Origin: Crocinitomicaceae bacterium
GTDB lineage: Bacteria; Bacteroidota; Bacteroidia; Flavobacteriales_D; Crocinitomicaceae
Reading direction: 5' to 3'
Length of the DNA stretch: 44,294 nt
Assembly: GCA_044370735.1 (NCBI GenBank)
Contig: JBILUY010000001.1
Location: forward strand, 1 to 44,294
Part shown: in pieces, positions 16,694 to 34,100 of the stretch
Layout of the letters: the number at the start of each line of letters is the position of its first letter
Numbering within the stretch: the first letter of the stretch is position 1
Notes under the pieces: model-generated
The model's input: the letters and a program-made list of their open reading frames with translations, nothing else
Told to the model about the DNA's origin: nothing
The model's database searches: none
Position numbers and translations under genes: made by a program

Positions 16694-16699
16694 CTTTTT

Positions 16700-19600
16700 T
16701 TAAATCTCTACGCAAATTAAAACAACATCATCCATCTGTTCGTAGTTACCTTTCCAGTTTTCATAGGTATCATTAAAGAATACTTTTTGATCAGATGTTT
16801 TCAAATTACCGACCTCTAAAATTGCTTTTTTAAGATTGGCAATTTTAAATCTATTCTCTTCCTCGTTCATTTGATCTGCATATCCATCACTGAAAGTATA
16901 GATTTTATCTCCAGTTTGAAGTTGTATCGTATTTTTACTAAATGGGGTCATTTTTTTGTAAATTCCTATAGGTTGTTTGTCACCCTTTGTTTCAATTAAT
17001 TCATTATCTCTTAATATATACATTGGGTTATTTGCTCCTGAGAAAGAAATTTCATTAGTATTTAAATCCCAGCAACAAAGAGCTATATCCATTCCGTTTC
17101 TCATTTTTTCATCAGAATCCAAATCAATATTTTTATTGAGTGTTTTAATTACAGAATCTCTTAAAGCGTCTAGAATTAAGTTTGTTTCTTCGATTTCTTT
17201 TTCAATTATGATTTCATTTAATAATGAGATTCCTATCATAGTCATAAATGCTCCAGGTACGCCGTGACCTGTACAATCGGCAGCAGCCCAGAAAATTTTA
17301 TTTGATTTTGTTTTATAGGCCCAATAAAAATCACCACTGACAATATCTTTTGGTTTGAAAAGAATAAATAAATCAGTAAATAATGTATTGAAGTATTCAT
17401 TTGAAGTGATAATCGCCTCTTGAATCGTTTTGGCGTATTCAATACTTTCAGTAATCATTTCATTTTTTTCTTGAATTTCATCTCTTTGTTTTACGACTTC
17501 AGCAGTTCGTTCAGCTACAATTTTTTCCAATTTGATATTGGCTTCACGTAGTCGTTTAGTGTAAATTCTAACAGTAACGTAGATAATCAAAATGAAAAGT
17601 GCTGTGTATATGATATAAGCTAAAATTGAACGATACCAAGGCGGTCTGATTTTAAACGTAAAGTGGCCAACTTCTGAAATTTCTCCATATACATTCATTG
17701 CTCTAGCTTTGAAAGTATATTTTCCCTCAAATAAGTTTGTGTAATTTTTGTAATTATCCGTAGACCATTCAGACCATTCCTCATCAAATCCTTCCAATTT
17801 ATATTGAAATAGTGTTTTTTCTTCTTCTAAAAAATAAGGACTTGAAAAGAAAAAACTAACTTCATTAAAGTCATAATTAACTTTTGAAATTTTATGGTGT
17901 TTTTGTGTATTACCTCCATATAGTAAGGAATCTTTACCAATAATGACTTGTCTAATAAGGGTTCTAAATTTATATTTTTCTTGTTTATGTTCTGCAGGTT
18001 CGTATTTATATAGACCATCTGGTGTACCTAACCAGATATTGTTTTGATCTCCAAAGAATGAATAAATATGAAACTTAGGAAGTTTTTTTAAGTCAGTGGT
18101 ATCTCTATGTTTATTTTTTAATGAAATTTTTGAAACACGTGCTGTATTATCTCCATATGTGGAAGTATAGATATGATTCTTTCCATCATATTTTAATCGA
18201 AATATTCCTAATTCATCATTACACAGAAATGGATGGATTTGGCAAGATTTTTTTAATTTTTTTGATTGGTAATCATATTGGTATAATGCATTTTTTGTAC
18301 CAATAAACACATTGTCTTTTATGGTAAATATTTGATTATATCCAAGATTTTTCAAGCCATGTTTTTGATCAATAAAGTAAATGTGTCTTCCATCGATATA
18401 ACCGATACCTGTATTATCTGTAGCAAACCAAATGTATTTATTTTGATCAATTCCAATACTCCTTACAGCACTTTGAGTAGAAGTAAGTTTTATTGGTTGT
18501 TTCGTTTTTAAGTTATATAGGTAGACTCCATTGTCACATCCCAATAGAATTTCAAGATCGTTTTTCTTTTCGATATAGAATAAGTTACAAAGATAAATTG
18601 GTTCTGCTGATTTGGTTAGTTCGTTTATTTGATATAATCCTTTTGAGTTCGCAATAAATAGTTTCGAACCAACTTCACAAAATTTCCAAGTTTCAGCATG
18701 TAACCCAGAAATTGGTAGAAATTTGCCATTTTCTAAATACTTCACATTTGTGCTTGAAGCAATAAACAGTTTATTCTTGTATTTAATAACATCTTCAACC
18801 GTATTTTCAATACCTTCATTTAAGCCCCAATTTTTAATTCCTGTATTAATTTCTAATCTCGATACTCCTTTATCTGTACAAAGCCAAATATTTCCTAAAT
18901 GATCGTTAACGATTTTATTAATCGCATTATTTATTAATCCATTGTTTGTTGTAACTTCGTTTATTAAATTCCCTTGGATATCAAATAATTGAAGTCCTTT
19001 ATAGATGGTTCCAACAGCAATTTTATTGTTGATGGTTTTTTCTAAACTGTAAACATAGGCATCTCTAAGGAACGTTTTGTATTGAAGAAATTTTGAACTT
19101 TTTCGATCTATTTCCCCTGTTTTTTTATTGTAAAGGGTAATCCCTTCTTTCCCATTTAGAAATATAATTTCCTCATTATTCAATCCGACCGCTCCTGCGA
19201 TTGGTGCGTCAATGAAATAGGTGTTATTCTTCGCTTTGTGTAATCCCTTTTTGTTTATTACATATAAACCATCTTTTTTGTTATTGAAATATATTTCATC
19301 ACCTACTTTGTTTAAGGTGAAGAATATAGGAATATTTACAAAATTGATTTTGGTTCCATCGTAATCAAAATATCCTTCATCAGTAGAGAAATAAACGTGG
19401 TTATTTAAATATACTGATGTCCATACGTTTTGAAAATTTTGTTGTTTTTTTGGAACTTTATTTTTAAGTGAAATATATTTAATAACTCCTTGTTTATCTG
19501 CTTCTAAATAACCTATTTCTCCAACACCACCTACATATATTTTTCCTTTTTCATCTTTGCAAAAAGATAAAGGAGGTGCATCATTTTTTAGATGTAGAGA

Positions 19601-19810
19601 GGTCCAATTTCGACCATCATAAATTGATATTTTATTTCCTGAAGCAAAATACAAAACCCCATTAATGTCTTCAATACCGGTCCAAGTTTGAGCATTTAAT
19701 CCTGAAATTTTTGGATCAAAATTTTTAAGAAAATAATTCCCTTTTTCTTGATTATAAGAAAAATTACCTATAAAAAGTACTAATATAGAGAAAAGAATAA
19801 ACTTAGGCAT
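16700..19810 (-). CDS. SiaA-like sensor phosphatase: beta-propeller + Y_Y_Y sensor, TM helix, PP2C/SpoIIE domain
   Basis: 1036 aa. Long N-terminal two-component-regulator-propeller-like region, Y_Y_Y domain (FQYKLEGFDEEWSEW...GKYTFKARAMN), TM helix (ILAYIIYTALFILIIYVTV), coiled coil, and C-terminal SpoIIE/PP2C motifs (SGDFYWAY, AADCTGHGVPGAFMTMIG, FSDGYADQ). Confidence 0.8.
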   Translation of the reverse strand: MPKFILFSILVLFIGNFSYNQEKGNYFLKNFDPKISGLNAQTWTGIEDINGVLYFASGNKISIYDGRNWTSLHLKNDAPPLSFCKDEKGKIYVGGVGEIGYLEADKQGVIKYISLKNKVPKKQQNFQNVWTSVYLNNHVYFSTDEGYFDYDGTKINFVNIPIFFTLNKVGDEIYFNNKKDGLYVINKKGLHKAKNNTYFIDAPIAGAVGLNNEEIIFLNGKEGITLYNKKTGEIDRKSSKFLQYKTFLRDAYVYSLEKTINNKIAVGTIYKGLQLFDIQGNLINEVTTNNGLINNAINKIVNDHLGNIWLCTDKGVSRLEINTGIKNWGLNEGIENTVEDVIKYKNKLFIASSTNVKYLENGKFLPISGLHAETWKFCEVGSKLFIANSKGLYQINELTKSAEPIYLCNLFYIEKKNDLEILLGCDNGVYLYNLKTKQPIKLTSTQSAVRSIGIDQNKYIWFATDNTGIGYIDGRHIYFIDQKHGLKNLGYNQIFTIKDNVFIGTKNALYQYDYQSKKLKKSCQIHPFLCNDELGIFRLKYDGKNHIYTSTYGDNTARVSKISLKNKHRDTTDLKKLPKFHIYSFFGDQNNIWLGTPDGLYKYEPAEHKQEKYKFRTLIRQVIIGKDSLLYGGNTQKHHKISKVNYDFNEVSFFFSSPYFLEEEKTLFQYKLEGFDEEWSEWSTDNYKNYTNLFEGKYTFKARAMNVYGEISEVGHFTFKIRPPWYRSILAYIIYTALFILIIYVTVRIYTKRLREANIKLEKIVAERTAEVVKQRDEIQEKNEMITESIEYAKTIQEAIITSNEYFNTLFTDLFILFKPKDIVSGDFYWAYKTKSNKIFWAAADCTGHGVPGAFMTMIGISLLNEIIIEKEIEETNLILDALRDSVIKTLNKNIDLDSDEKMRNGMDIALCCWDLNTNEISFSGANNPMYILRDNELIETKGDKQPIGIYKKMTPFSKNTIQLQTGDKIYTFSDGYADQMNEEENRFKIANLKKAILEVGNLKTSDQKVFFNDTYENWKGNYEQMDDVVLICVEI

Positions 19811-19885: not shown

Positions 19886-20926
19886 CTACCTTTTTGGCTC
19901 TGATATTAATGTGTCACCGATCATTGAATAATCGGTTAGAGTAAATAAAAATTTCATCAAATTCTTTTTATCTGTAGAAGATAAATTCAAATTTTTATTT
20001 AGTGTTGGATCAAGGTTTGAATGTGATTTTATTCCTGAATTATAATGATTAATCACGTCCATAATACTTGCAAATCTCCCATCGTGCATAAATGGATAGG
20101 TAAATTCAACATTTCGTAAGGTAGGAACTTTGAATTTAGCTCGATCACTTTCTATTTTAGTCACATTATATCTTCCATCGTCTTTGTAGATACTATCTAG
20201 ACCATTATTTCTAAAAGAATAATCCGTAAATAAAGGTTCTTTGTGACATTGAGCACAATTCGTTTTAAATAATTCATATCCTGCTTGTTCGTTTGCTGTG
20301 AACGTAGCTTTACCAGCCTTCACTTGATCGTATTTAGAATTTGCAGAAACAACAAATGCCATATACTGACTTAAAGCTAGTTGAAGGTATTTGGGGGTGA
20401 TACGATTAATATTATATGCTTTTTTAAATTGAGTTGAATAGAAATTGTTTTTATTTAATTTTTCAAAAAGATGCGTTGTGTCTTCTTTCATTTCAATCGG
20501 GTTTAAAATAGGATGCATTGAGAAATCATCCATTTTTGTAACATTTCCATCCCAAAAGAAATAGGGGTTCCAAGCCATATTAAACACAGGCGGTGCATTA
20601 CGATTTCCAAAAGCGCCATTTACTCCTTTGCTAAATGGAATATTGTGGTCTGCAAATCCGTGCGTTTGTGCGTGACACGTTGCACAAGATATGGAACTAT
20701 CTAACGATAGAATTGGGTCGTAAAATAAATACCTTCCTAGTACAAATTTGGCCCTGCTGACTGTATTCCCTTCAAAAGAATAAATTGAGCTCGGAAAATT
20801 GGAAGGAGCATTGAAAGCAAAATTATCTTGTGGTACAGATGGAATAGGAGATATAACGGGCTTATCTTTTTTACAACTACAAACAATTGTAAAGATGAGA
20901 ACCCCTATAACCCCTAACTTTTTCAT
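19886..20926 (-). CDS. di-haem cytochrome c peroxidase / MauG / MbnH superfamily lipoprotein (copy 2)
   Basis: 346 aa. Two CXXCH sites (SCATCHAQTHGFADH, NCAQCHKEPLF) plus FFWDG and YPFMHDGRF motifs. Lipobox-like VCSCKK. Confidence 0.85.
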   Translation of the reverse strand: MKKLGVIGVLIFTIVCSCKKDKPVISPIPSVPQDNFAFNAPSNFPSSIYSFEGNTVSRAKFVLGRYLFYDPILSLDSSISCATCHAQTHGFADHNIPFSKGVNGAFGNRNAPPVFNMAWNPYFFWDGNVTKMDDFSMHPILNPIEMKEDTTHLFEKLNKNNFYSTQFKKAYNINRITPKYLQLALSQYMAFVVSANSKYDQVKAGKATFTANEQAGYELFKTNCAQCHKEPLFTDYSFRNNGLDSIYKDDGRYNVTKIESDRAKFKVPTLRNVEFTYPFMHDGRFASIMDVINHYNSGIKSHSNLDPTLNKNLNLSSTDKKNLMKFLFTLTDYSMIGDTLISEPKR

Positions 20927-20936
20927 ATTTTTAAAT

Positions 20937-21536
20937 TTAAAAATTTTTCTGTATTCCTACAAAACAATCTTGGTGAAATTGATTGTTTGTTGTGTTATAT
21001 TGTTGAAAATAGGAGAGTTCATATCGACCATATACACCCCATTTTTGATTGAAGAAATAATGGATTTCTGGTAATAGAGTAACTCCGATACCGTTTGTGT
21101 AAAATCGGGTCCAAAGAGGGGATTTAATCATCCATTTTGTTTTGGAAAAATAGGGGAAAATTGACACAAGAGGCTCCAAACTAGACGCTTGAGTTCCTCT
21201 ACTGTCATTATCTAAACGTAAACGTAGATCGACACCAATTCCGGCATATAATCTCCAAGCAGCTTTATCTATCCATTTGTATTCGAGTATAGGTGTAAGA
21301 TCGTAAGCTGTTTTTGAAAAGTAAAAAAGTGTCCCATATGAACGGATCCGAGCAGAAAATAACAAATCATTTCTGTATGAAGTGGTATAAATTACATTCG
21401 TAATAGGATAGATATAGCGATTGCGGTAACTTCCAATATCGGTACTTATGGTACTTTTCAATTGTTTCATTTCCTGTGTATATCCCAATGAGAATATACA
21501 TAGTAACAAAATCACTAAACTATTGAATTTCATCAT
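20937..21536 (-). CDS. small predicted outer-membrane beta-barrel protein
   Basis: 199 aa. Signal peptide MMKFNSLVILLLCIFSLGYTQ and a C-terminus ending in F (GIQKNF). Its start overlaps the upstream stop as ATGA. Confidence 0.5.
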   Translation of the reverse strand: MMKFNSLVILLLCIFSLGYTQEMKQLKSTISTDIGSYRNRYIYPITNVIYTTSYRNDLLFSARIRSYGTLFYFSKTAYDLTPILEYKWIDKAAWRLYAGIGVDLRLRLDNDSRGTQASSLEPLVSIFPYFSKTKWMIKSPLWTRFYTNGIGVTLLPEIHYFFNQKWGVYGRYELSYFQQYNTTNNQFHQDCFVGIQKNF

Positions 21537-22333
21537 GGTTGCACACTGTTAAAAGTTGGACCAATCTTTACTTCATCAAAATACACAACATTATTATTTT
21601 TTGGTTGAATGTGTCCGTGATATTGCCCGAATTTGAAATAGTTTCCTGCTCGGTTGTAAAGATTTGGGCTATAGAATTTGTGGTCTTTTCCGTTATTTGG
21701 AGTGATATATTCCTTATTTAACCAAGCTTCGATAAATCCTTTGTCTGTATCATCCCAATAAATATGTGCAGTAAAGTCATACCATTTTCCTTTTTCGATG
21801 GGAATGCTATTTCCAATCAAATAGGTTTGATTACTGCTTCTCGGGTTTGAATTTCCATGTAATTCCATTTTCCCATCCACATAGGTAAATTGAATGGGAG
21901 GGGGAGAGCCGTGAAGTACGGGTGTGCTTGTCCAACTTTCACCGCGAAGGTAGTCAGGCAAATCTTGCCATTGACAGAGTAGGGTATAGGAGTCATCTTG
22001 GTAATTAGTATCGATATAGAAACTAAAACCATAATAAGCTTCGGATTGGTAGTTTGCCGAATGATAAACAGCTAATTCTGTTCGATAACCATTAAAGACA
22101 AAATCTTCTGTATGTAAGGTTGTTTTCAATGCTGTTTTTCCAGAGCGAGTAGGGTAATTTACTAAAGAAAGATTGGCATTGGTATCTTTCACTAAAAGCA
22201 AATCATACGATTTTAATTTGTTGATCTCAAAACGATCTTCAAACGGTGCTATCGGTTGATTGGGTTCGTTCAGCGGAACTTTCCCACAGGAAAGTAAAAC
22301 AAGAAGAAATAGTATAACCCCAAATTTCATCAT
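21533..22333 (-). CDS. concanavalin-fold lipoprotein, polysaccharide-lyase (heparin lyase I / PF14099)-like
   Basis: 266 aa with lipobox LLSCGK. The pattern GYRTELAV...FSFYID...LCQWQD...SPPPIQFTYVDGKMEL...GKWYDFTAHIYW...GFIEAWLN...YFKFGQY...VYFDEVKIG matches my recollection of that family. The start overlaps the upstream stop as ATGA. Confidence 0.5.
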   Translation of the reverse strand: MMKFGVILFLLVLLSCGKVPLNEPNQPIAPFEDRFEINKLKSYDLLLVKDTNANLSLVNYPTRSGKTALKTTLHTEDFVFNGYRTELAVYHSANYQSEAYYGFSFYIDTNYQDDSYTLLCQWQDLPDYLRGESWTSTPVLHGSPPPIQFTYVDGKMELHGNSNPRSSNQTYLIGNSIPIEKGKWYDFTAHIYWDDTDKGFIEAWLNKEYITPNNGKDHKFYSPNLYNRAGNYFKFGQYHGHIQPKNNNVVYFDEVKIGPTFNSVQP

Positions 22334-23349
22334 CGGATTGGTTCAGCATATTTTGTACTTCCAATATACGAATAATCACTCAAGGTTTTTAAAAATTCAA
22401 TTAAATCCGATTGGTCTTTGTCGTTTAACGGAAAACCATTGACGAGTAAAGGGTCAGTTGTTGGTGAAATTTGAATTCCGGTAGCTTTGAATTTTACCAC
22501 TTCTTTTAAGTTTGCAAATCGTCCATCGTGCATGTAAGGATAGGTAAATTCAATATTGCGTAGGGTTGGAACCTTGAATTTTCCTTTATCTGCCGGAGCT
22601 TGCGTTACTTTTTCTACACCGATATCTACGATGTTACTTTCTAAGCCACTGTTTCTAAAACTATAATTTGTAAAAAGAGGTTCGGTATGACACGAATTAC
22701 AATGTTGTTTAAATAGCTCATAGCCATGTTGTTCATTCGATGTAAAAGTTGCTTTCCCTAATTTCACTTGATCGTATTTGGCATTCGCTGATATTAGCAT
22801 TGAGGTAAATTGAGCCAAAGCATGCAGAAATTTTTGATCCGTAATGGTATCAACTCCAAAGGCTTTTTTAAACTGTTTGCGATAGAAAGCACTTCGATTT
22901 AGCTTTTTCATTAAATTGCTAAATGTTTCACCCATTTCATGTTCGCTGGTAATTGGTACAAGAGGTTGTACTTCGATGTGATTTACTCCTCCATCCCACA
23001 TAAAAGTAGGTGACCAAGCAAGGTTCATCAAAGCGGGAGCATTTCGTGTTCCAAATTTTCCGTGAACTCCTTTACTTAAGGGAACGTTATGATCAGCAAA
23101 ACCATGTGCTTGAGCATGACAGGAACTACAAGATAAAGAACTATCTGCAGATAGGATAGGGTCGTAGAATAAGAACCGTCCTAACTCAAAACCTGCTTTC
23201 GTTAATGGATTGTTTGAGTAAGAATAAACTGGTTTTGGAAAATGACTTGGTTGGTCAAATGTGAAAGTATCAATTGCAGAAATTATTGGTTCATCTTTTT
23301 GACAAGACAAAAGAATGAAAAGTAGAATAAATGGTAATATTATTTTCAT
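22330..23349 (-). CDS. di-haem cytochrome c peroxidase / MauG / MbnH superfamily lipoprotein (copy 1)
   Basis: 339 aa. Two CXXCH sites (SCSSCHAQAHGFADH, HCNSCHTEPLF) plus FMWDGG and YPYMHDGRF motifs. Lipobox LLSC followed by QKDE. Confidence 0.85.
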   Translation of the reverse strand: MKIILPFILLFILLSCQKDEPIISAIDTFTFDQPSHFPKPVYSYSNNPLTKAGFELGRFLFYDPILSADSSLSCSSCHAQAHGFADHNVPLSKGVHGKFGTRNAPALMNLAWSPTFMWDGGVNHIEVQPLVPITSEHEMGETFSNLMKKLNRSAFYRKQFKKAFGVDTITDQKFLHALAQFTSMLISANAKYDQVKLGKATFTSNEQHGYELFKQHCNSCHTEPLFTNYSFRNSGLESNIVDIGVEKVTQAPADKGKFKVPTLRNIEFTYPYMHDGRFANLKEVVKFKATGIQISPTTDPLLVNGFPLNDKDQSDLIEFLKTLSDYSYIGSTKYAEPIR

Positions 23350-23368
23350 ACAATTGTTTTAAAAAAGA

Positions 23369-23391
23369 GGGTGTCTCATAAAGAGACACCC
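23369..23391 (-). terminator. intrinsic-terminator-like hairpin between the MbnP-like gene and the peroxidase operon
   Basis: GGGTGTCTC (23369..23377), loop ATAAA, GAGACACCC (23383..23391). On the minus strand it is followed by TTTTTT, and the next ATG comes 19 nt after the stem. Confidence 0.6.
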
Positions 23392-23401
23392 ATCCAATTA
23401 A

Positions 23402-24214
23402 CTATTGATTATTTGTTACTTTTTTAACAGAGAATCCATAAGGACTGTTAAATAAACCAAATCCTCCATTTTCGCCCAGAGCCATAGTCACAGCAGGAGT
23501 TCCTGGCATGTGAATCATGTTTAATGTTTTCACACTTGGTGCTGAATGCCACAATAAACCTGGGTTAACTTCCATAGAAATAGTACTTTTCTTGTTTGCA
23601 GTTACTGTTACTTTTGTAGTGTTTTCTAACGCTATTGATTTTTTTGTAACCACATTGTTCGCACCACTAAATCCACCTAAATGGAAAGCAAACATTTTTT
23701 GTTTTGCGGTATCTAAATATTTACCTTCTGCTTTTAACATGATGTAACCACTTTTCCAGCTCCAGTACATATCATTTGTTACAGCTAAATCACCTGTTTG
23801 AGCTCCAGAAACGTTTCTTGCACTATCCACACCTAACGTATATTCTAGGGAAGTATAATCACCTGCTGGAACATTTGCTAAACTAATTGTCAAAGAACTT
23901 GGTTTAGAAAGGTCAATCAAATGGTAGCTTTCAGTTTCAGTCCAGTAAGTACCATCCGCTTTTTTCAATTTTACATTCGTAAAGAAATATTTGAATTTAG
24001 AAAAATACATCGTATCCTTTTTCATTGGGTGAATGAAAATACTATCCAACATAAAGTCTTTCTCATTCATCATACCATACTTATGAGCAAACTCGATGTT
24101 TACAGTACCATTTCCTACTGTATTAGGTGTAGTAGTTGTGTCATCTTTTTTACAAGAGGTTAATCCTAAGATTAAAGTCGCAGCAGCTGCGATTGTTAAT
24201 TTGATTGTTTTCAT
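23402..24214 (-). CDS. MbnP-like lipoprotein (WxW motif)
   Basis: 270 aa with lipobox LTSCKKDD. Beta-rich pattern YFSKFKYFFTNVKLKKADGTYW...VPAGDYTSLEYTLGVD and the motif DMYWSWKSGYIMLKAEG (WSW at 23756..23764). Sits next to a MauG/MbnH-like di-haem enzyme. Confidence 0.5.
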   Translation of the reverse strand: MKTIKLTIAAAATLILGLTSCKKDDTTTTPNTVGNGTVNIEFAHKYGMMNEKDFMLDSIFIHPMKKDTMYFSKFKYFFTNVKLKKADGTYWTETESYHLIDLSKPSSLTISLANVPAGDYTSLEYTLGVDSARNVSGAQTGDLAVTNDMYWSWKSGYIMLKAEGKYLDTAKQKMFAFHLGGFSGANNVVTKKSIALENTTKVTVTANKKSTISMEVNPGLLWHSAPSVKTLNMIHMPGTPAVTMALGENGGFGLFNSPYGFSVKKVTNNQ

Positions 24215-24277
24215 TTTGTTAATTTTTTAAAGTTTATTTTTTCCTTCCTTGAGGAGGGACAAAGGGAGGTGATTTTA

Positions 24278-26653
24278 TTATTCGATAATCAATTTCTCAA
24301 TATGTTTTCCGTTTACATATTCCACATGAATGAAATAAACACCAGTACTGAAAGCAGTTTCCAATTCTAAATCTGTTTTGTTAACAAATTGAATTTCTTT
24401 TACTTTCATTCCAAGTTCGTTGAAAATTACTACTTGTTGAATTGCTGCAGGAGCATTGATAGAAATATTTCCTTTAGAAGGATTAGGGTAAACTTGCGTT
24501 TTCGTAGCATTTATTTCCTCGATACCAGCGCATGCTTCTCTTGTTAATGAAATACTATCTCTGCTTGTAGTACCTACTTTATCAGTGATTTCAACCCAAT
24601 AGTTTCCTGTAGATAAATTACTTACTGATAACGTTGTATCACCCGTACTCCATTTGATTTTGTATGGTGCAGCAGGAGCAGCGAAGATTGTTCCACCTGT
24701 GAAAGCAATCGATAATTCTCCTTCTTTGTTAGCACATGTTGCTTTTTTCACTTCTGCAAAAGCTACATTTAAAGGAACTTCTGATAATGAATTTGAATAA
24801 ATACTATTATTTTCAGTTGAAACAAAAACGCGTTCTCCAGCAAAACCAATTTTGTTCACATCTGTGAAACTTGGTAAGTTGAATTGATTTCCACCTCTTT
24901 CCCATGTTTTCCCTTCGTCAGAAGTTGCTAATAAACCACCTTTGTATGAAGCGAATAAGTAACCACCGTAAGTACCTAATGCTTGAATAGCATCACCATC
25001 TAAACCTAACATTACTGTATGATCGATTGATGTTTCAGCGGTAGCTTTCCAATCTATGTTTTCGATGTTTGAAACATATACTCCACCGTGATGAGCACCT
25101 ACGTAAACATTTGTTCCTAAAGCAGTAATACTTGTTAAATGATCTGTCGGTAAGTTTTTATTGATATCTACCCAGTCACCAGCGTTCTCATTTTTAACAA
25201 AAGCACCTTGACCGTGAGCAGCTAAATATACTTTACCTCCTAAAAATGCCAATGACACAGGCTCCATTCCTTGTGGAAGTCCACCCATAATCATCGTCCA
25301 ATCATTTGTTCCGTTTGATTGCCAGATGTTTCCAGTACTACAAATTACATAGATAAAGTTTTTAGAAGCAAATACTTTTTCGATATTCATATTTGTCAAT
25401 CCTTTGTTAAAAGTAGACCAAACATTAGCTGCTGTATCAGTAACAAATACACCTGCATTTTCAGTCACTGCATATGCTTTAGAACCAAAAATTGCAAGGT
25501 CATTTACATTCAAACTATCCGTTAAACCTTTGTTTATTTTAGTGTATGAAGTAGCTAAATTTTTGGTTACATAAACACCTCTTTCATTTGCCACATAAAT
25601 TAGTTTTGCATTATTCGTTGCGAAAGAATTTGTTTTAATGTTATTGAAACCAGTGTTAGTTGCTACCCATTTGCTAGTGTTTTGATCTAAACGATAAATA
25701 CCATTGTTTTCAATACAAACATAAATTTGATTTTGATGAATGAAACCATTATTGATGTTTAATGAATCAGTAATGTTAAAATTATAAGAATCATATTTTT
25801 GACTAATTGGGTCTCCTAAACCTCTTTCAGTTATAAATAATGCGTTTGATCCGATTTCATCAATAATGATATTTTTTACTTTTTCCGAAAATTGAGAAAC
25901 AGTATAATCGAATTTAGTAATAGTATCAGCTTTTTCTAAAACTAATAAGTATGATTCAGTGAACACCGCTAATTCATCACTATTACCTAAGTAATTGATT
26001 GATAAAGCACCATTTAAATTTGTAGTTTTTATATCATTCAACGAAGCCCAAGTAGTGCCTAAATTTTCAGAATAATAAATACCTTTTGATTCCGTTAAAA
26101 GAAATACTCGTTTGCTAGATTGACTTAAACCAACAATTTTAGTACCCGCAAAAGAGAGATTTGTTACCTCTGTCCAATTGTCTCCTAAATCTGTTGATTT
26201 AAAAAGTTTACCAGATGTTGTTCCAGCTAATAAAGTGTTTGCATCCAAAGCTATTACCGAAGTTAAATCCAACGACGTTAACCCTTTGTTGATTTTCACC
26301 CAGTAACGATCTGATCCAACATATCCAGAAAAACGGAAGATACCACTATCTGCAGTAGCTGCAATCGCATATTTTCCTGTATGAGCTAATCCAACAATTT
26401 TACCGCTTTTTAAACCTACAGGTCTTGCTGACCAAGAAACAATGATGGTATCTTTTGCAGTTGCATCGTACTTACGTGTACCTGCATATACACCTCCATT
26501 TGCAGTACCAATGTAAACGGTATCTTTTTTAGTTACAGAACAAGTTACAGTTCCGCCACCATAAGGACCTTTCGATCCAAAGTGTGCAAAAGAAGTTGCA
26601 CTCACTAAAACACCGGTTAAGGCTAATCCAATTTTAGTAATTGTTTTTTTCAT
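24278..26653 (-). CDS. BNR/Asp-box (sortilin/Ycf48-like) beta-propeller protein with SprB-type repeat and T9SS sorting domain
   Basis: 791 aa with a signal peptide. Asp-boxes STDLGDNWTEV, SENLGTTWASL and SDEGKTWERG. SprB-like module KKATCANKEGELSIAFTGG...YKIKWSTGDT...GNYWVEITDKVG. C-terminal QVYPNPSKGNISINA...GVYFIHVEY...KLIIE. Confidence 0.75.
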   Translation of the reverse strand: MKKTITKIGLALTGVLVSATSFAHFGSKGPYGGGTVTCSVTKKDTVYIGTANGGVYAGTRKYDATAKDTIIVSWSARPVGLKSGKIVGLAHTGKYAIAATADSGIFRFSGYVGSDRYWVKINKGLTSLDLTSVIALDANTLLAGTTSGKLFKSTDLGDNWTEVTNLSFAGTKIVGLSQSSKRVFLLTESKGIYYSENLGTTWASLNDIKTTNLNGALSINYLGNSDELAVFTESYLLVLEKADTITKFDYTVSQFSEKVKNIIIDEIGSNALFITERGLGDPISQKYDSYNFNITDSLNINNGFIHQNQIYVCIENNGIYRLDQNTSKWVATNTGFNNIKTNSFATNNAKLIYVANERGVYVTKNLATSYTKINKGLTDSLNVNDLAIFGSKAYAVTENAGVFVTDTAANVWSTFNKGLTNMNIEKVFASKNFIYVICSTGNIWQSNGTNDWTMIMGGLPQGMEPVSLAFLGGKVYLAAHGQGAFVKNENAGDWVDINKNLPTDHLTSITALGTNVYVGAHHGGVYVSNIENIDWKATAETSIDHTVMLGLDGDAIQALGTYGGYLFASYKGGLLATSDEGKTWERGGNQFNLPSFTDVNKIGFAGERVFVSTENNSIYSNSLSEVPLNVAFAEVKKATCANKEGELSIAFTGGTIFAAPAAPYKIKWSTGDTTLSVSNLSTGNYWVEITDKVGTTSRDSISLTREACAGIEEINATKTQVYPNPSKGNISINAPAAIQQVVIFNELGMKVKEIQFVNKTDLELETAFSTGVYFIHVEYVNGKHIEKLIIE

Positions 26654-26734
26654 AGTTAAATTTAATTGTTTGATTGACTTATGGGTAAGTCTTTTTCTCT
26701 AATCTTCTTTTGTCTTTCTACTTTCCACTTTCTT

Positions 26735-27112
26735 CTACTTTCTCGCCCCTTGTTGTATCCATTTTAAAATTAAATCGGTTGTACACCCGTCTAATTTTCC
26801 TGTTGGAGGCATAGGGTTGGTTTTAGAAGTCATCGAAACATACAAAATGCTATTTTCTGGTTTCATCGTGTCAATGTAGCCACTTTTACTATCCATTAGG
26901 TTTGCGTATGCTTGATTACTTTCTAAATTCAAATTTCCAGCAGGTTTAGATCCAACATGACAACCTGAAGTATTACAATTTGCATTGAATATCGGTTGAA
27001 TGTCTTTACTAAAAGAAACAGTTGCTGGCGGTGTACACACAGGTTCTGCAGTTCCTTTTTTACAAGAAATCAATAGCGTAGGAAAAGAAAGAACTAAAAA
27101 GATTTTCTTCAT
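26735..27112 (-). CDS. small lipoprotein with cytochrome-c-like (PSCyt1-like) domain carrying CX4CH
   Basis: 125 aa with lipobox LISCKK. IQPIFNANCNTSGCHVGSKPAGNLNLES ... ILKWIQQGA resembles planctomycete-type cytochrome c domains, but with C-N-T-S-G-C-H instead of CXXCH. The start overlaps the upstream stop by 1 nt (TAATG). Confidence 0.45.
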   Translation of the reverse strand: MKKIFLVLSFPTLLISCKKGTAEPVCTPPATVSFSKDIQPIFNANCNTSGCHVGSKPAGNLNLESNQAYANLMDSKSGYIDTMKPENSILYVSMTSKTNPMPPTGKLDGCTTDLILKWIQQGARK

Positions 27113-27882
27113 TAATTTTCGTATCTAAACATCGAAGCGATGTTAGTTTTTAACGTTGAAACGATGGGTTTTTTGTTATCATCTAAACTTTGGACTTTCA
27201 AATTCTTGGCGTTGGTTAAATCTATGTTTTCAAAGAATTTACTGTAATCAATGACCATATGAGCGTATCCAATTTGTCCTTCCAAAATGGTAATGTTTTG
27301 CTCTGGCATAACTACACTTATTAAGTTCTCGTTTCCTCCAATGCGGTATTCAAATGGAACTTTGACTCCATTCATCGCTTTGGTTGTATCGATTTGACCT
27401 GCAAAATTTAAAAACACATATTCATCGGGTTTAGCCATAGTGCCAAACCACATTTCAGATTGATTGAGTAAGATGTTATATCCTTCAGTGGTAGGTAATA
27501 ATTTGTTTGTTGCTGGGATAAGACCTACTTTAAATCGTACTGATTTGTAGTTTCCAACGTTGACATCACCAATTACAACACTTTCAGATTCAAACACTTT
27601 TAACGCACCTTTACTAGGTACATTATAAACGCTTCCATCCAACTTAACCAACTGAATATCTGTTAGGTAAAATTGAGCGCGATTGAGTGAAATTTTTCTT
27701 CCTTCCGGAGTGGTCATTTCAATATCATACGCATCTACTTCCGAATCACCTATAAAGGTATGAAGGTGAAATACCAATCTTCCTTTCGGGGTGTTATCCG
27801 TTGTAGCGGTTGGTGTTGAAGTTTCTTTTTTACATGAAACAAGTACCAACAGCAGTGAAATAATATAAACCCAGTTTTTCAT
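27112..27882 (-). CDS. lipoprotein distantly resembling the MbnP-like protein, lacking the WxW motif
   Basis: 256 aa with lipobox LVSCKKE. Shares the layout RAQFYLTDIQLVKLDGSVY...VNVGNYKSVRFKVGL with the 23402..24214 protein, but has SEMWFGT where that protein has MYWSWKSGY. Confidence 0.4.
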   Translation of the reverse strand: MKNWVYIISLLLVLVSCKKETSTPTATTDNTPKGRLVFHLHTFIGDSEVDAYDIEMTTPEGRKISLNRAQFYLTDIQLVKLDGSVYNVPSKGALKVFESESVVIGDVNVGNYKSVRFKVGLIPATNKLLPTTEGYNILLNQSEMWFGTMAKPDEYVFLNFAGQIDTTKAMNGVKVPFEYRIGGNENLISVVMPEQNITILEGQIGYAHMVIDYSKFFENIDLTNAKNLKVQSLDDNKKPIVSTLKTNIASMFRYEN

Positions 27883-27886
27883 AGTA

Positions 27887-28942
27887 TTAAAATGAATAGT
27901 TTAAAGATGCGTGCCACGTATTTGAACTTTTGTTTTGAAGTCCATGCAATTGTTGGTAAAGTGGAATACCATATTCGAAAGCTATACGACAACCAGTTAA
28001 GAAGCCAAAGTCTAATTCATAAGAAGAACCAATGAAAGCAGATATCTTTGTCCCTCCATAATTAGCAGGATTGGCTCCTAACTCGTTGAAAATGTATAGT
28101 TGTGCGTCGTTACCGTGAATTTGTTCTGATATAGAACTCTCAACACGAAAAGTTGATCCAACTTGTTCTAACCAATTGTAACCAACCCAAGCCGTTGAGT
28201 TCCATTCATTTCCTAAACGATATCCTAATTTATTGTCATTCAATCGAATAATAGCACTTGTTTGTACACTTGTAGCCCATTTCGATTTTTGAAATACATA
28301 GGTAATGTTTGGAAGGTATTCCCAAGAGCCTGATCCCAATTGCATCATATAGGGATAACGTTTTCCTTCATACAACATATCCGAATTACTTCCTGTAGAT
28401 TGGTAATTACCAGAAGGAATATTAATTCCATTGGATAGTACTAATTGTTGTTGTTCCGTTTTTACCAAACCAAACATACCAACCAATTTTGTATCTCCCA
28501 AACCAGCAGTTTGCATTTCCATCGGAGTAGTTGCGTCCATTGTCATGCCTGACATGGTATGTGTATGGTTACCCAACATTTCCATTGGCATAGTATTTTG
28601 CATATAATGGAACATTCCCATTACTGTCCAACGGTCTGATAAACCAACCATAGCCATCAGCATATGCATATTCATTTGCATCGAAGGGGTGTACATCAAA
28701 TATTGATTGTAAATATCTGTTTTTGATACCGTTGTTCCATTTTGAATAGGTGTTCCCATATTCATTTGAGAAAAACGATAACTCAACATCCACTCCTTTT
28801 TTGGATGCACATGACTAATCATCACCCCAGCTGGAGTAAGATTTCGTATGCAATGACAAGTGTGATCGCATGTTGTTGTATCTTCTTGTGCACAAAGAGA
28901 AATACTTGAACACAGGAAGAAAATCCACGTTAAAAATTTCAT
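27887..28942 (-). CDS. Met/His-rich outer-membrane beta-barrel (transporter-like), candidate Cu(I)-binding porin
   Basis: 351 aa. Signal peptide, then CDHTCHC (28850..28870). By my count 18 Met fall in the 62 residues MYTPSMQMNMHMLMAMVG...TPMEMQ (28511..28696). The C-terminus SLNYSF is typical of OM barrels. The next gene starts 4 nt after the stop. Confidence 0.6.
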   Translation of the reverse strand: MKFLTWIFFLCSSISLCAQEDTTTCDHTCHCIRNLTPAGVMISHVHPKKEWMLSYRFSQMNMGTPIQNGTTVSKTDIYNQYLMYTPSMQMNMHMLMAMVGLSDRWTVMGMFHYMQNTMPMEMLGNHTHTMSGMTMDATTPMEMQTAGLGDTKLVGMFGLVKTEQQQLVLSNGINIPSGNYQSTGSNSDMLYEGKRYPYMMQLGSGSWEYLPNITYVFQKSKWATSVQTSAIIRLNDNKLGYRLGNEWNSTAWVGYNWLEQVGSTFRVESSISEQIHGNDAQLYIFNELGANPANYGGTKISAFIGSSYELDFGFLTGCRIAFEYGIPLYQQLHGLQNKSSNTWHASLNYSF

Positions 28943-28984
28943 CGTATCGATGATTCAAATTCGAAAATAGATAAGAATATTAAG

Positions 28985-29008
28985 TACATTCTAAAACACA
29001 AGAATGTA
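28985..29008. promoter_or_regulatory. perfect 8-bp inverted repeat (TACATTCT-N8-AGAATGTA), candidate operator
   Basis: Located in the 128-nt gap upstream of the Met-rich barrel gene, about 45-65 nt from its ATG at 28942. Confidence 0.3.
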
Positions 29009-29070
29009 ATAGATACATAGCTATTCAGTCAATTACTATTTGTAAAAGCTGAATAATATGTATAGGGAAA

Positions 29071-29472
29071 TTATGCTGTTGGGGGATGAAAAATAGCGTC
29101 TGTGTGTTTGTCAGACCAAACTATAGCATAATAAAAATCTTTTTTAGAAGAAGGTTGATTAGCTAAATCTACTTTGAAAGTTTCGAAAAACGACTGTTGA
29201 TCTAAAGTAAATTCACTTGTTTCAATTTTTGACTTACCAAAATCAATTTTATTTGATTGTTCTTCTTTGGCTTGTTCCTTCGCTAATTGTTTTGCTAAAT
29301 AACATTTACCATTACAATGTAGCATCGGTTTGGCTTTGTTTTCACAATATTTTCGTGTGATTTCCGCCTTATTGATTTGATAATTAATGAATAAACCTGT
29401 CTTAATCAGTGTGTTAGAAACAAACAGACTGATCATACAAAAAGCAAAAATCTTGTATGCTAGGTTTTTCAT
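29071..29472 (-). CDS. membrane-anchored protein with C-x9-C-x3-C motif, function unknown
   Basis: About 133 aa from ATG 29472; the track start at 29490 lies inside the upstream terminator stem. N-terminal TM segment (AYKIFAFCMISLFVSNTLI), then YCENKAKPMLHCNGKCYLAKQLAKEQ. Confidence 0.5.
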   Translation of the reverse strand: MKNLAYKIFAFCMISLFVSNTLIKTGLFINYQINKAEITRKYCENKAKPMLHCNGKCYLAKQLAKEQAKEEQSNKIDFGKSKIETSEFTLDQQSFFETFKVDLANQPSSKKDFYYAIVWSDKHTDAIFHPPTA

Positions 29473-29488
29473 GAGACAAATGTAAAAC

Positions 29489-29526
29489 AAAAAACGAACC
29501 TAAAAAGTGATTTAGGTTCGTTTTTT
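29489..29526 (-). terminator. strong 16-bp stem-loop terminator
   Basis: AAAAAACGAACCTAAA (29489..29504), loop AAGTGA, TTTAGGTTCGTTTTTT (29511..29526). A/T runs on both sides allow action in either direction. Follows the stop of the 29556..30167 gene. Confidence 0.75.
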
Positions 29527-29555: not shown

Positions 29556-30167
29556 TTACTGAATATCATACACTTTCACCCATCCTTTATTTTCGTGGTA
29601 AAGCATACAAATTACTTCATCCTTTTTTTCTGTACATTCTGTTAATGTGTAAAAGCTTCCCACAATCCAATCACCATCATTGTATTTGGCTAACAAGTCT
29701 TTATTACATACTTGATAATCTGCGTTTTCATATTGAACGTATGTTCCTGAACAATCTTTTACGACTTTCAATTTTTGATCAGTAATTTTTATCTCTTTCG
29801 TTGGACGGTATAGTAATTCACTTTTACGAACCTTGATATACGATGCATAAGCGTGAGCCATTTTACACGTATATTGATCAGGAGAAATAGTTGAACACTC
29901 ACTTAATTTAGTGATGGATGCATAGATTACATCTCCTGCTTCGTAGTTTGCTGTGCTTTCGAAATTACATACTTTGTAGTCATTCCCATCAATTTTCAAG
30001 TATGAACCAGTACAATCTTTAACGAACTCAGCCTTTACTTCTGTGTAAACAGTATCTGTATCCGAAGGTGTTGTTCCACCATCTCCTGGTTTGTCAAATT
30101 GAAACTTTTCACAAGATACAACTGCAAATGAAGCAATTGTCAACAATGTAAATATCCACTTTTTCAT
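29556..30167 (-). CDS. lipoprotein made of two tandem 4-Cys domains, function unknown
   Basis: 203 aa with lipobox VVSCEK. Residues about 46-113 and 133-199 align as VKDC[TS]G[ST]Y...DY[KQ]VCN...Y..GD.I...L.EC...C...KV. Confidence 0.6.
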   Translation of the reverse strand: MKKWIFTLLTIASFAVVSCEKFQFDKPGDGGTTPSDTDTVYTEVKAEFVKDCTGSYLKIDGNDYKVCNFESTANYEAGDVIYASITKLSECSTISPDQYTCKMAHAYASYIKVRKSELLYRPTKEIKITDQKLKVVKDCSGTYVQYENADYQVCNKDLLAKYNDGDWIVGSFYTLTECTEKKDEVICMLYHENKGWVKVYDIQ

Positions 30168-31173: not shown

Positions 31174-34100
31174 TTAATTTATTACAATCTGTTTTCTTTC
31201 GACACGATCACCTTCTAAGTGAACTTCTAAAATATAAACTCCTGCTCTTAAATTTTCTACATTGATTGTTGAAGAATTTTCTGTTCCTGTAAAACTTTCA
31301 GAATGAACTAAAACTCCATTTGAAGAAATTAATTTAATATCTTTTTTAACAGATGGATTTGCACCAACAATGTCAATATTGATTACATTATCCACAGGAT
31401 TTGGATAAACATTTAAATAGATTTCCTCTTTTACTTCGGCAGCATTTTCAGTTGAAATTTCGATAGTTTCTGTAGGGGTTATTTTTCTGTATATAGATGC
31501 ATTTCCTTTATTATCAACGATAAATTCATATCCTTGATATTTTTTACTATCACTTCCACAATATGCATAAATATCATAAATTCCAGGAGTTAATCCTGTT
31601 AGATTGATAGACTTACTTTCACCCATCTTATTGTAAAGAGAGATGAATGTTTGATTATTTACAGTAACAAAATTCCCATTTTTATCTTTCTTACGTATTC
31701 TATATTTATTATTCGTAGAACCATAAGAAACATTAAACTTAATTGATGAATCTACAACATCTATCGTAAGACGGATTCCAGTACAGTTTTCACGAACATC
31801 AGAGTAAAAATTATCTTTTACTTCTTGTTCTGAAATTGCCTTAGCAGAAAGTTTCAATTCGTCAAATAATAGTCTAATGATTTTATTTTTTCCATCATTA
31901 CCAACAATCAAATCAGTGTTATTATTAGATAAAACTGATGATTTAAATTTTGCTACTAATTGATCATTTACATAAACTTTATCAGAATCTTGATTATGAG
32001 TTAATACCAATTGATTCCATGTTCCAGCTTCAACTTTAAAACTAGTAGTATTCAAAACAGAGTTTTCACCAGCTCCAAATTGTACTTTTAGATTACCATT
32101 TTTATCCGCTAATATTTCAAACCTTTTTGAAGAAGTTGCGCTAGGAATGGACATGATAGTAGCATTATTATACTTTGGCATTTCTAATAGTTTATACCAA
32201 AATGAGATTGTATAAGCGGACAGTGTATCAATATCAACAAAGTTTTTGAAAGTTACATTATCCGTTGCATTGTAAATTCTATAAGCACCTGTTAAGTTGC
32301 CATAATTATCATCAACCTTAATTGCGCCAACTACTTGTGGTGCAGTAGCTCTCTTTAATGAATCATTATTGTTTTTATCGAACGAGTAGTATGATATTAC
32401 ATCTTTTAAAATCGATTTGCAATTTTCTTTGTAAATGCTGAATGAACTAGATTTAAAGTAGCTTACATCCTGAGAACAATATACATATAGTTCATATTCT
32501 CCTTCGGGAAGTTCATCAATAGTTACACGTTTTGTTTCTTTAGCTACGTTACCAATCGATACAAAAACAGGATTTGATATTACAGTAAATGTATTGTCTG
32601 GATTAATTCTTCTCAAACGATAGGTGAAATTAGGAGCTCCTCCAGAAATCGTAAAGGTAACACTACCATAAAGGTTGTCACAAGTGACCGGAGTTATATC
32701 ACTATTTTCGATAGTTAAACTCATATCTTTACATGTATAATTTTCAGATGAAGTATTTCCGTCACCACCTGAAGTTACAGTGTCACATAAAGATAAAATT
32801 GAAAAGTTATACACTTTTGATACTTTTGCATCTTGACCACAAAAAGCAAATAAGTCGTAATTTCCTTTCGCTAAGTTTGAAACAGTAATTGTTTTAGATT
32901 CACCTACGCCATTATTTAATGGTGCAAAAGCTGGACTAGTTAATATGGTAAATGTTCCATCATCGTTTTTCTTTCTTAAACGATATTTATTATTGTCAGA
33001 TCCATTTGCAATGGTAAATGTTATTTGACCATCATTTGTTGAAGTGCAAGTTGCTTTTTTAATGTCCTCAGATAAGACAGAAATTGAAATAGGTGTACAT
33101 GGGCCAGATAATACTGAATTTACTGTTACTCTTACTGTATCTTGTCCATAGCAACCATTTTTTAATCCTGACATGGTGTATGTAGTTGTTTTAGTAGGAT
33201 TTGCAGTAATAGAAGCTCCTGTAGAACTGCTTATAGTTGCAATCGGTGTCCAGCTATAACTATCGCCACCAGTACCGGTTAATGTTGTAGTTTCACCAGA
33301 ATTAATTGTATATTTTGATGCAGTTGCTGTTACTATAGGTAATTCTTTGATAGTTAGTGTGGTTTTATAATCATCAGATGAGCAGTTTCCATCATTACCA
33401 CTTACGATAAAACCATAACTTCCTATTGCTACGTTTTTAGGTAAATTGAATTTCCCAACTTGGTTATAAGAAACGTTTGTCAATGTTGGATACCCTTGTA
33501 TAGGATTATCTCCTAATGATACGTTAAAATATTTAGCAGCGACCTTACCAGTTAAAGTTAGTTCAGCTGCAGTATCGTTATAGCATGCTACTTTTAAAGA
33601 AGCTGTATAACTTGGTTTGTAGTAAAATTTAATGGTATTACTAGAATCTAATACTACATTAGTAAATCGTGCATCAGATACTGAAATAAGTTTTAATGTG
33701 TTAATTGTAGAATCTACTGTAATGGTATATACTTCTTTTGTAATATTCGTTATCGTTTTCTCTACTCCATTATTTGCGGTATATACAATTTTAAACGGTG
33801 CAACACCTTTCATGTAAATAAGTGCATTTTTTGTTTTTGGAGTAACACACTTTGTTGTTCCTTCAAAAAATGCTAATGGTTTTCTATCTACTATTAGTTG
33901 TGCTGATTTAGATGTAACATTTTCATATTTACCATATAATAGTACTCTAAAGTAATTCTTCTTGTAGTACAATCTGTTAGCAATGACCAATGTATCTTTG
34001 GTAACTTTGGTGAAATTACCCCCTTGTTTGATATCATTCCAAGTTAAGCCACCGTTGAAAGAATATTGCCATAAAAATGAAGTTGCAAATTGAGATGCCA

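Follow-up and report, generated by a model that had tools for sequence, protein, structure and literature searches.

We examined a block of ten consecutive genes in a 44,294-nucleotide (nt) stretch of a Crocinitomicaceae bacterium genome (assembly GCA_044370735.1, contig JBILUY010000001.1, positions 1 to 44,294; hereafter the window), in which genes for MbnP-like lipoproteins lie together with genes for MbnH-like di-haem enzymes. An earlier reading of this DNA, hereafter the original prediction, had described a cell-envelope locus centred on MbnP and MbnH and had proposed that the ten genes form one undescribed Bacteroidota machine for copper or another metal. The MbnP/MbnH-centred envelope locus was upheld by profile hidden Markov models (HMMs), a fold match and synteny. 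The ten open reading frames (ORFs) were confirmed on the minus strand at 19886–29472 and were named G1 to G10 in transcription order, and almost all of the domain calls made for them were borne out by Pfam and NCBIfam HMM scans.

Gene content and layout of the locus

The first gene, G1 (29071–29472), encodes a putative CutF/CruR-like leader protein of 133 amino acids (aa), recognised by its motifs and its position in the operon. A 128-nt gap (28943–29070), predicted from its folding z-score to be structured, separates it from G2 (27887–28942), an outer-membrane beta-barrel of the FapF / PF13557 class according to the HMM and a family profile. G3 (27112–27882) and G6 (23402–24214) are MbnP-family lipoproteins recognised by PF20243; G3 is degenerate, and G6 was also identified by the fold match of its AlphaFold2 (AF2) model. 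Between them lie G4 (26735–27112), a small lipoprotein that is probably a mono-haem c-type cytochrome (PSCyt1, C-x4-C-H), and G5 (24278–26653), a Sortilin/BNR-type beta-propeller with a SprB repeat and a C-terminal sorting domain of the type IX secretion system (T9SS), assigned by HMMs. Two MbnH-family di-haem enzymes were assigned by PF03150 and TIGR04039: the MbnH-like G7 (22330–23349), with two CXXCH motifs, and G10 (19886–20926), which keeps an H-Y motif. They are separated by G8 (21533–22333), a PL20-like (PF14099) jelly-roll lipoprotein by HMM, profile and fold, and by G9 (20937–21536), a small putative outer-membrane barrel known from its neighbourhood as the constant partner of G8. A hairpin scan found a terminator-like hairpin with a T-run in the gap between mbnP (G6) and mbnH (G7), at 23369–23391 on the minus strand. 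Another terminator-like hairpin on this strand (29489–29526) closes the upstream gene and delimits the operon on its 5' side.

The junctions had been described as tiny throughout. Five out of nine are indeed tight, with spacings of 4 and 10 nt, two ATGA overlaps and one overlap of 1 nt, and the other four measure 128, 81, 63 and 52 nt. The motifs CDHTCHC (G2), WSW (G6), CNTSGCH (G4) and C-x9-C-x3-C (G1), all named in the original prediction, were read in the translations, together with a lipobox (L-x-S-C or V-C-S-C) in G3, G4, G6, G7, G8 and G10. It had also been stated correctly that the block contains neither a TonB-dependent transporter nor a methanobactin biosynthesis gene, as we found domains of neither kind. 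Domains of the methanobactin operon genes (MbnB/MbnC and the TonB transporter MbnT) were absent from the block and from the scanned ORFs of the window, where no specific search was made for a short MbnA-type peptide. The sole Plug-domain gene among those ORFs (7458–9767) lies on the other strand about 10 kb off and is unrelated.

Conservation of the block

An alignment of G6 homologues recovered more than 585 relatives in a species-representative genome collection, mostly from Bacteroidota (Crocinitomicaceae, Saprospiraceae and Chitinophagales), and 80 loci were kept. These MbnP-anchored loci were searched by tblastn with all ten proteins, and then every ORF was clustered. An MbnH-family gene followed MbnP in 70 out of the 80 loci, a G1 homologue was present in 54 and a G2-family barrel in 50. 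In these loci and in the window those core cassette genes (G1, G2, MbnP and MbnH) that were present were adjacent and on one strand, customarily in the order G1–barrel–(129-aa protein)–MbnP–MbnH or G1–MbnP–MbnH–barrel. G3, G4 and G5 were found only in the three closest of the 80 loci (L002–L004), and tblastn detected G8 and G9 in none of them; thus, a single ten-gene unit was rejected. The gene order was not conserved for G8–G10 in any of the 80 loci.

Further relatives showed where the block can be divided. Locus L113, whose MbnP is 69% identical, keeps the order G1–G7 and continues with a 115-aa gene. Locus L112 (MbnP 87%) has the same order without G5, again followed by a 115-aa gene, and has no G8–G10. 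Locus L114 (MbnP 88%) is the sole relative that shares the order through G10, with G5–G6–G7–G8–G9, a 105-aa gene and a G10 counterpart. G5 is present in L002–L004, L113 and L114 and missing from L112, and G3 is present only in the close relatives L002, L003, L112 and L113. The block is a mosaic of a four-part cassette, a lineage-specific G3–G5 insertion, an independent G8–G9 module and an extra peroxidase paralogue, G10. The ten genes are not one conserved unit: a seven-gene operon, G1–G7, is followed by three genes that have no relation to it or only a loose one.

The cassette often has a fifth member, the 129-aa His-rich lipoprotein with conserved H-G-Y and H-E-H-W motifs, which was found in 24 of the 80 loci (including L005, L007, L009, L010, L012, L013, L024, L033 and L036). 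One member had a weak match to DUF4625. The window has no counterpart, and the comparable slot is taken by G4. Two records labelled Proteobacteria, the Glaciecola amylolytica chromosome (L025) and a metagenome-assembled genome (MAG) labelled Azovibrio (L041), contained Bacteroidota-type MbnP–MbnH pairs that were 47% and 39% identical to G6, respectively, and only L025 had an upstream G1-family gene; these pairs may reflect horizontal transfer, or mis-binning in the case of the MAG. Finally, the region divergent from G1–G7 in L113 (positions 1–4391) encodes two T9SS proteins, one with a YHYH domain and one that is arylsulfotransferase-like, as well as a second MbnP + CCP_MauG pair.

MbnP-family proteins G6 and G3

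Both proteins scored well above the PF20243 cut-off of 27 bits (G6, 157 bits, 5.5e-46; G3, 66 bits, 4.2e-18). The G6 family has an invariant M149-x-W151-x-W153 motif and an invariant H178. The AF2 model of G6 (predicted local distance difference test, pLDDT, 83) had a single PDB fold match at E < 1e-3, which was MbnP 7L6G (E = 2e-8, probability 1.00, template modelling (TM) score 0.55–0.58, 13% identity); sequence searches of the PDB with G6, G3 and a Bacteroidota MbnP profile did not reach this structure. The copper site of MbnP is formed by a His, a Met, a solvent-derived ligand and Kyn174, the kynurenine of the WxW motif (PMC11951088). The conserved residues of G6 appear to fit this site.

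In an alignment with the G6 family, both Trp residues are missing from G3 and its orthologues and the conserved His is replaced by Arg or Lys, while an N-terminal H-x-H is conserved among them. G3 is thus probably a diverged MbnP paralogue and not a second substrate of the known kind. The duplication of enzyme and partner described in the original prediction is not a simple one: G3 lacks the WxW motif and the His, and the two peroxidases differ at the site of the MauG-type haem-ligand Tyr.

A hairpin with a T-run directly follows mbnP in the window and in L112, L113, L114 and L002, each time with a different stem. Such a hairpin was found at 18 out of 56 MbnP-to-MbnH junctions, and suggests a lower output of MbnH than of MbnP. 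The residues after the lipobox read C-K-K-D-D in G6 and C-Q-K-D-E in G7. They resemble the K-(D/E)2 surface-export signal of Bacteroidota lipoproteins described for Capnocytophaga and Bacteroides, and a signal of this type would put MbnP at the cell surface, by analogy with MopE and CorA.

Di-haem enzymes and the small cytochrome

G7 and G10 matched PF03150 CCP_MauG (2e-53 and 7e-51, respectively), and TIGR04039 (MbnH) was the top NCBIfam model for both. Each has a pair of CXXCH motifs (CSSCH and CNSCH in G7; CATCH and CAQCH in G10), and the inter-haem Trp is kept in both (MWDGG, FWDGN). Both enzymes align end to end with MbnH 6E1C, including the C-terminal extension (E = 2e-39 for G7), whereas the canonical peroxidases align with them only up to about residue 290.

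The electron-transfer haem has His-Tyr ligation in MauG-type enzymes (Tyr294 of MauG) and His-Met ligation in canonical peroxidases (PMC11892367). This Tyr is the last residue of the motif P-Y-M-H-D-G-R-F-x-T-L-x-x-V-L-x-H-Y in 60 out of 62 MbnH-family sequences from Bacteroidota. By alignment alone, Lys288 of G7 falls on the Tyr of 6E1C and on MauG position 294, so that the Met ligand of canonical peroxidases is missing there too. The K-F-K replacement is common to the G7 orthologues of L112, L113, L114 and L101 (the closest relative in the G8 searches described below), and the orthologue of L003 has Ile. G10 keeps Tyr295, which lies on MauG position 294 according to the HMMER alignment ranges, and may be a conventional MauG-type oxidant.

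G4 matched PSCyt1 with 26 bits (cut-off 22). Its C-x4-C-H motif is C-x2-C-H in the L003 orthologue, and N-P-M-P-P is conserved. The lineage with the Tyr-to-Lys change also carries G3 and this small cytochrome c; from these residues and neighbours, the haem chemistry of G7 may be altered, and G4 may be its source of electrons. In L002 we observed an extra small CXXCH lipoprotein ORF (about 5630–5990) between mbnP and mbnH, which adds to the recurring link of small c-type cytochromes with the MbnH of this lineage. A second CCP_MauG gene, convergent to mbnH, was found in L008, L020, L027, L041 and L048; paired peroxidases therefore recur, in an arrangement unlike that of the window.

The G2 outer-membrane barrel

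G2 matched PF13557 weakly, with 25.1 bits (cut-off 22), and 4 out of 37 members of its family matched this model individually. The G2-family profile matched FapF (5O65/5O67, E = 1.7e-8) over profile positions 74–299, corresponding to about 225 residues of the 12-stranded barrel. In the 37 sequences, the mature N-terminus has a near-invariant A-C-D-x-C-G-C motif in which C25 and C29 are invariant; in G2 of the window it reads C-D-H-T-C-H-C. The Met content of G2 is 7.7%, within the 7.7–8.7% range of the window, L002 and L003, compared to about 2% in the rest of the family, and the excess is found in MxM-rich stretches of the N-terminal half, which hold His too. Taken together with the synteny, the G2-type barrel appears to be the constant outer-membrane partner of Bacteroidota MbnP–MbnH pairs, in the slot of the TonB-dependent transporter of proteobacterial systems.

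The G1 family

G1 has an N-terminal hydrophobic segment, a C43-x9-C53-x3-C57 motif and F-H-P-P two residues before the stop codon; its export signal was judged by hydropathy alone. In the G1-family alignment (n = 39), only the three Cys residues (C-x9-C-x3-C) and the C-terminal PP are invariant. The PP lies 1–12 residues before the stop (most commonly 2), and the stretch from the last Cys to the PP measures 65–83 residues in the loci, constrained in length and variable in sequence. A search of 1.84 billion proteins (clustered at 50% identity, E <= 1e-3) recovered 8313 clusters. Among the best 146 representatives, which were inspected, the spacer was 63–71 residues, PP was within the last 15 residues in 144, FHPP was present in 110 and the N-terminus was hydrophobic in 96%. 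No Pfam model matched G1, and the source databases label family members as 'hypothetical protein'. Membership of G1 in DUF2946 was considered and rejected, because 0 of the 39 family members matched that model.

In all nine contexts that were reached independently of MbnP, the G1-family gene came first and was followed by a gap of 64–385 nt. In Dyadobacter, Arcicella and Flectobacillus the genes that follow are a TonB-dependent transporter and PepSY_TM, and in Agriterribacter a TonB-dependent transporter and a BNR-like protein. In Maribacter and in the Bacteroidota MAG L116 the G1-family gene precedes MbnP, MbnH and the barrel, in Hufsiella these three and CutC, and in Reichenbachiella two MbnP genes, MbnH and the barrel. 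Finally, in Parapedobacter it heads the series SCO1, unknown gene, YtkA, YtkA, unknown gene and MbnP. Candidate carriers that are in culture include Fluviicola taffensis DSM 16823 (L026), Maribacter vaceletii (L082) and Dyadobacter sp. LJ53 (L081).

All the rules that define the published CutF-like proteins apply to G1 (<150 aa, PP in the last 15 residues, N-terminal signal, same-strand gene at <1000 nt and a Cys motif; PMC9973294). The G1–G2 gap had a folding z of −3.56, with 1 out of 200 shuffles equally stable, and a small hairpin is predicted over the G2 start codon. The gap is alignable in L112, where the first hairpin is not conserved, and the second hairpin is partly changed in L113. 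Across 40 loci, the gaps after G1 had a median z of −2.7, compared to −1.3 in control gaps (p = 0.015). Because the spacer is conserved in length only, the terminal PP is invariant and the gene is first in all nine contexts, we read G1 as an arrest-peptide leader, and its architecture and context suggest, by analogy with CruR and CutF, that it may sense copper.

Upstream of G1, at 29477–29484 (minus strand), the sequence TACATTTG fits the Bacteroidota-type −7 promoter box TAnnTTTG and is a candidate promoter element. It directly follows the upstream terminator and ends 4 nt upstream of the G1 ATG. If used as a promoter, it could make the G1 mRNA nearly leaderless; in such AT-rich DNA the match may be due to chance.

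Accessory genes G5, G8 and G9

The T9SS C-terminal domain of G5 (PF18962 / TIGR04183) spans residues 721–790 (8e-12 and 5e-9) and accompanies the Sortilin/BNR region; according to its domains and distribution, G5 is probably a lineage-specific accessory gene. G8 matched PF14099 (2e-32) and the PL20 glucuronan lyase 2ZZJ of Trichoderma reesei, both in a profile search (E = 7e-13) and in a fold search (E = 2e-14, TM 0.66–0.73); in contrast to that enzyme, G8 is a lipoprotein from a bacterium and always has the small barrel G9 as its partner. When metagenomes were scanned with G8 homologues, G8 and G9 were adjacent in about 20 loci, and only the fetched stretch of L101, the closest relative, contained a peroxidase gene, in the order G7–G8–G9. 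Thus, we rejected G8–G9 as a substrate or partner module for G10, and the two genes are an independent module.

Flanking genes

The remaining window is ordinary chromosome, with UvrC, a SurA-like protein, XseA, ThrE, large T9SS proteins and a SiaC-type signalling module. This SiaABC-like module (15645–19810) lies between G10 and housekeeping genes and consists of a DUF6272 protein (15645–16277), a SiaC-family phosphoprotein (16279–16650) and, on the minus strand, a 1036-aa protein that joins a Reg_prop/Y_Y_Y sensor to a SpoIIE (PP2C) phosphatase (16700–19810). It was not found at the corresponding position in L112 and L114. Directly upstream of G1, and separated from it by the terminator-like hairpin, a minus-strand gene (29556–30167) encodes a 203-aa lipoprotein with no Pfam match, made of two internal repeats with conserved Cys residues (VKDC-x-G-x-Y...Y-x-VCN...EC...C). 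The same slot in L112 holds an unannotated 199-aa gene. Relative to L112, the window has an insertion between ThrE and the operon (31174–38019) that encodes two very large T9SS cargo proteins, one of 1446 aa with Laminin_G_3 and SprB repeats and one of 808 aa with an Ig domain.

Discussion

In our interpretation, to which we give a probability of roughly 0.6, G1–G7 form an envelope operon that is regulated by copper and most likely serves to acquire it, and the leader, barrel, MbnP and MbnH at its core are a cassette found across Bacteroidota. The proposal of a copper machine thus holds in part: the contexts of the G1 family (TonB/PepSY_TM, SCO1/YtkA and CutC-adjacent) back a copper role, because they are the repertoire reported for CruR (PMC9426467), and the idea of a single ten-gene machine does not hold. 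The claim of an undescribed system also needs qualification, since MbnP–MbnH pairs outside methanotrophs and CutF-like leaders in Bacteroidota are known (PMC3621798, PMC9973294).

The closest characterised system is MbnP/MbnH of Methylosinus trichosporium OB3b (7L6G, 6E1C), in which a WxW protein of the MbnP fold is likewise adjacent to a MauG-like di-haem enzyme. The Crocinitomicaceae pair differs from it in several aspects: G6 is only 13% identical to 7L6G, G6 and G7 are lipoproteins, methanobactin genes and a TonB transporter are missing, the constant partners are a FapF-like barrel and a Cys/PP leader, and G7 has a Lys for the haem-ligand Tyr. G2 resembles the amyloid secretion channel FapF of Pseudomonas and other PF13557 / COG4313 barrels over the barrel itself, and differs in the N-terminal C-D-x-C-G-C, the lineage-specific Met/His-rich insert and the coupling to the MbnP–MbnH pair instead of amyloid genes. 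In gammaproteobacterial methanotrophs, the MopE/SACCP and CorA/CorB systems also combine a surface kynurenine-copper protein with a neighbouring di-haem peroxidase gene and are copper-repressed (PMC3621798; PMC11951088). Their partner protein has a fold unlike MbnP, and no sequence relation was detected.

For G1, the best comparison is with CruR of Bordetella pertussis (bp2923, DUF2946), a protein of about 145 aa with an export signal, a CXXC motif, a length-conserved spacer of 45 residues and RAPP three residues before the stop, which is followed by a 162-nt gap and heads a copper-repressed operon of a TonB transporter and PepSY_TM; its homologues head Sco, PCuAC, CopC and MbnPH-like operons (PMC9426467). 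G1 shares with CruR its small size and first position, the export signal, the Cys motif, the spacer of conserved length, a terminal PP motif 2–3 residues before the stop and the long structured gap that follows, and both families head TonB-transporter/PepSY_TM, Sco and MbnPH operons. In contrast to CruR, G1 has C-x9-C-x3-C and not CXXC, FHPP and not RAPP, a spacer of 63–71 and not 45 residues and no DUF2946 match, and it belongs to Bacteroidota. CutF of Rhodobacter capsulatus has a CXXXC motif with upstream Cys residues, as G1 does, and a C-terminal PPP (PMC9973294; 2025 preprint), and Bacteroidota account for 19% of the published CutF-like set (PMC9973294). CutF activates a detoxifying oxidase via a stem-loop masking the Shine-Dalgarno sequence, whereas the genes downstream of G1 look like uptake genes.

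Several observations weigh against our interpretation. The equivalog cut-offs of the relevant NCBIfam models were missed, at 363 bits for TIGR04039 (G7, 213 bits; G10, 187 bits) and at 140 bits for TIGR04052 (G6, 46.7 bits; G3, 19.6 bits), and the copper ligands of 7L6G could not be placed residue by residue on G6, because sequence profiles never reach that structure. As G7 lacks the Tyr that defines MauG-type enzymes, the adjacent pair may not work as MbnP–MbnH does. The G1 family did not match DUF2946 even at E values up to 10, and its terminal motif is FHPP, not RAPP or PPP. Ordinary same-strand control gaps are also structured, with 19 out of 45 at z < −2 and the post-G1 signal modestly higher; since such gaps often hold terminators too, gap RNA structure was rejected as strong evidence and kept as weak support. 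For all the Bacteroidota members, copper sensing, metal binding and stalling are features that we infer, as we do the direction of regulation, transport and the assignment of enzymes to substrates; gene families, folds, motifs, synteny and operon contexts were observed. Finally, Met-rich barrels and CutF-type leaders are typical of copper detoxification too.

The last point leads to a different function for the same operon, copper detoxification or tolerance, in which a CutF-like G1 would turn the genes on as periplasmic copper rises and the barrel and MbnP would sequester or export Cu(I). The operons behind CutF-like leaders are most often of the efflux or oxidase type (PMC9973294), the G2 proteins of this lineage are Met-rich (7.7–8.7%, with MxM motifs) and a CutC gene follows the cassette in Hufsiella. 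However, most of the G2 family is not rich in Met, the presence of SCO1 in the operon of Parapedobacter points to cuproenzyme supply, and the operons of a TonB-dependent transporter and PepSY_TM that the G1 family heads have the architecture of the copper-repressed CruR uptake operon. We therefore favour uptake, because the family also heads these transporter and SCO1 operons, and we regard tolerance as unlikely.

About as improbable, in our view, is that G1 persists in the membrane as a small, stable protein, for example as a chaperone for copper, a factor for thiol redox or barrel assembly or an anti-sigma-like sensor, and is not a regulatory leader. Its hydrophobic N-terminus, the well-conserved segment from Asn-x-x-x-Ile to the Cys motif, the missing DUF2946 match and the gaps to the next gene of down to 30–36 nt in some loci would suit such a protein. 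A stable protein accounts poorly for a region from Cys motif to PP that is conserved in length and not in sequence, for an invariant PP always 1–12 residues from the stop and for first position in all nine contexts, whatever gene comes next.

It is very unlikely that the locus does not concern copper and is instead a peroxide-detoxifying or redox system of di-haem peroxidases and cytochrome c, or serves another metal. The lack of the MauG-type Tyr in G7, the canonical peroxidases among the top PDB matches, the small cytochrome c (classically the electron donor of di-haem peroxidases) and the link of some CutF-like leaders to nickel or cobalt (PMC9973294) point in that direction. Against it, G7 also lacks the canonical Met ligand and has the MbnH-specific C-terminal extension, the Tyr is kept in 60 out of 62 family members, the MbnP fold and its WxW, His and Met residues are conserved, and the contexts of the G1 family are typical of copper (SCO1, YtkA, CutC and PepSY_TM). 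Finally, that peroxidases, MbnP-like proteins, the PL-like lipoprotein and barrels of all ten genes act jointly as one dedicated surface machine has little chance of being right: the genes are co-directional with several overlapping junctions, L114 shares G5–G10 with one extra 105-aa gene and L101 shares G7–G8–G9, but G8 and G9 are in 0 of the 80 MbnP-anchored loci, L101 alone of about 20 G8–G9 loci has a peroxidase in the fetched stretch, the operons of L112 (87%) and L113 (69%) stop after G7 and a 115-aa gene, and the PL20 glucuronan-lyase fold of G8 has no known link to metals.

If G1–G7 act in copper acquisition, G1 would be translated first and inserted co-translationally, and its Cys motif would sense copper with the ribosome on F-H-P-P. 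Stalling at G1, or its relief, would then control how far the genes beyond the structured gap are transcribed or translated, as in CruR and CutF. G2 would act as a FapF-like channel in place of the TonB-dependent transporter of proteobacterial systems, and its N-terminal Cys motif, together with the Met/His-rich inserts of this lineage, may bind or pass Cu(I). A MauG-type di-haem enzyme would oxidise one Trp of the M-x-W-x-W motif of G6 to kynurenine, giving a Met/His/Kyn copper site. The adjacent enzyme is G7, with its Lys for the haem-ligand Tyr; the actual bis-Fe(IV) oxidant may be the Tyr-keeping G10, and G7 may have the small cytochrome c G4 as its redox partner. G3 and G5 would be lineage-specific accessories, and G8–G9 an inserted unrelated module.

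More tentatively, and at less than even odds, these features may belong to a TonB-independent copper uptake system that is widespread in Bacteroidota, where an FHPP nascent-peptide sensor gates a 12-stranded Cys-motif barrel and a kynurenine-copper lipoprotein, accompanied in the lineage of the window by a Tyr-to-Lys enzyme with its own small cytochrome c. Our literature search found no published description of the Bacteroidota cassette, its barrel or the Tyr-to-Lys variant. To our knowledge, copper acquisition in Bacteroidota is poorly understood, and we know of MbnP/MbnH biochemistry from a methanotroph only. In Bacteroidota, MbnP and MbnH are part of a fixed cassette in which a small barrel stands in for the TonB transporter and a probable copper-sensing leader comes first. 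If the leader reading is true, a second phylum would use nascent-peptide metal sensing, and its arrest motif would differ from the known one. The Tyr-to-Lys enzyme beside a Tyr-keeping paralogue is a natural experiment on haem ligation and MauG-type chemistry, and with Lys ligation of the G7 type, if true, the bacterial cytochrome c peroxidase / MauG superfamily would gain a third class of haem ligation.

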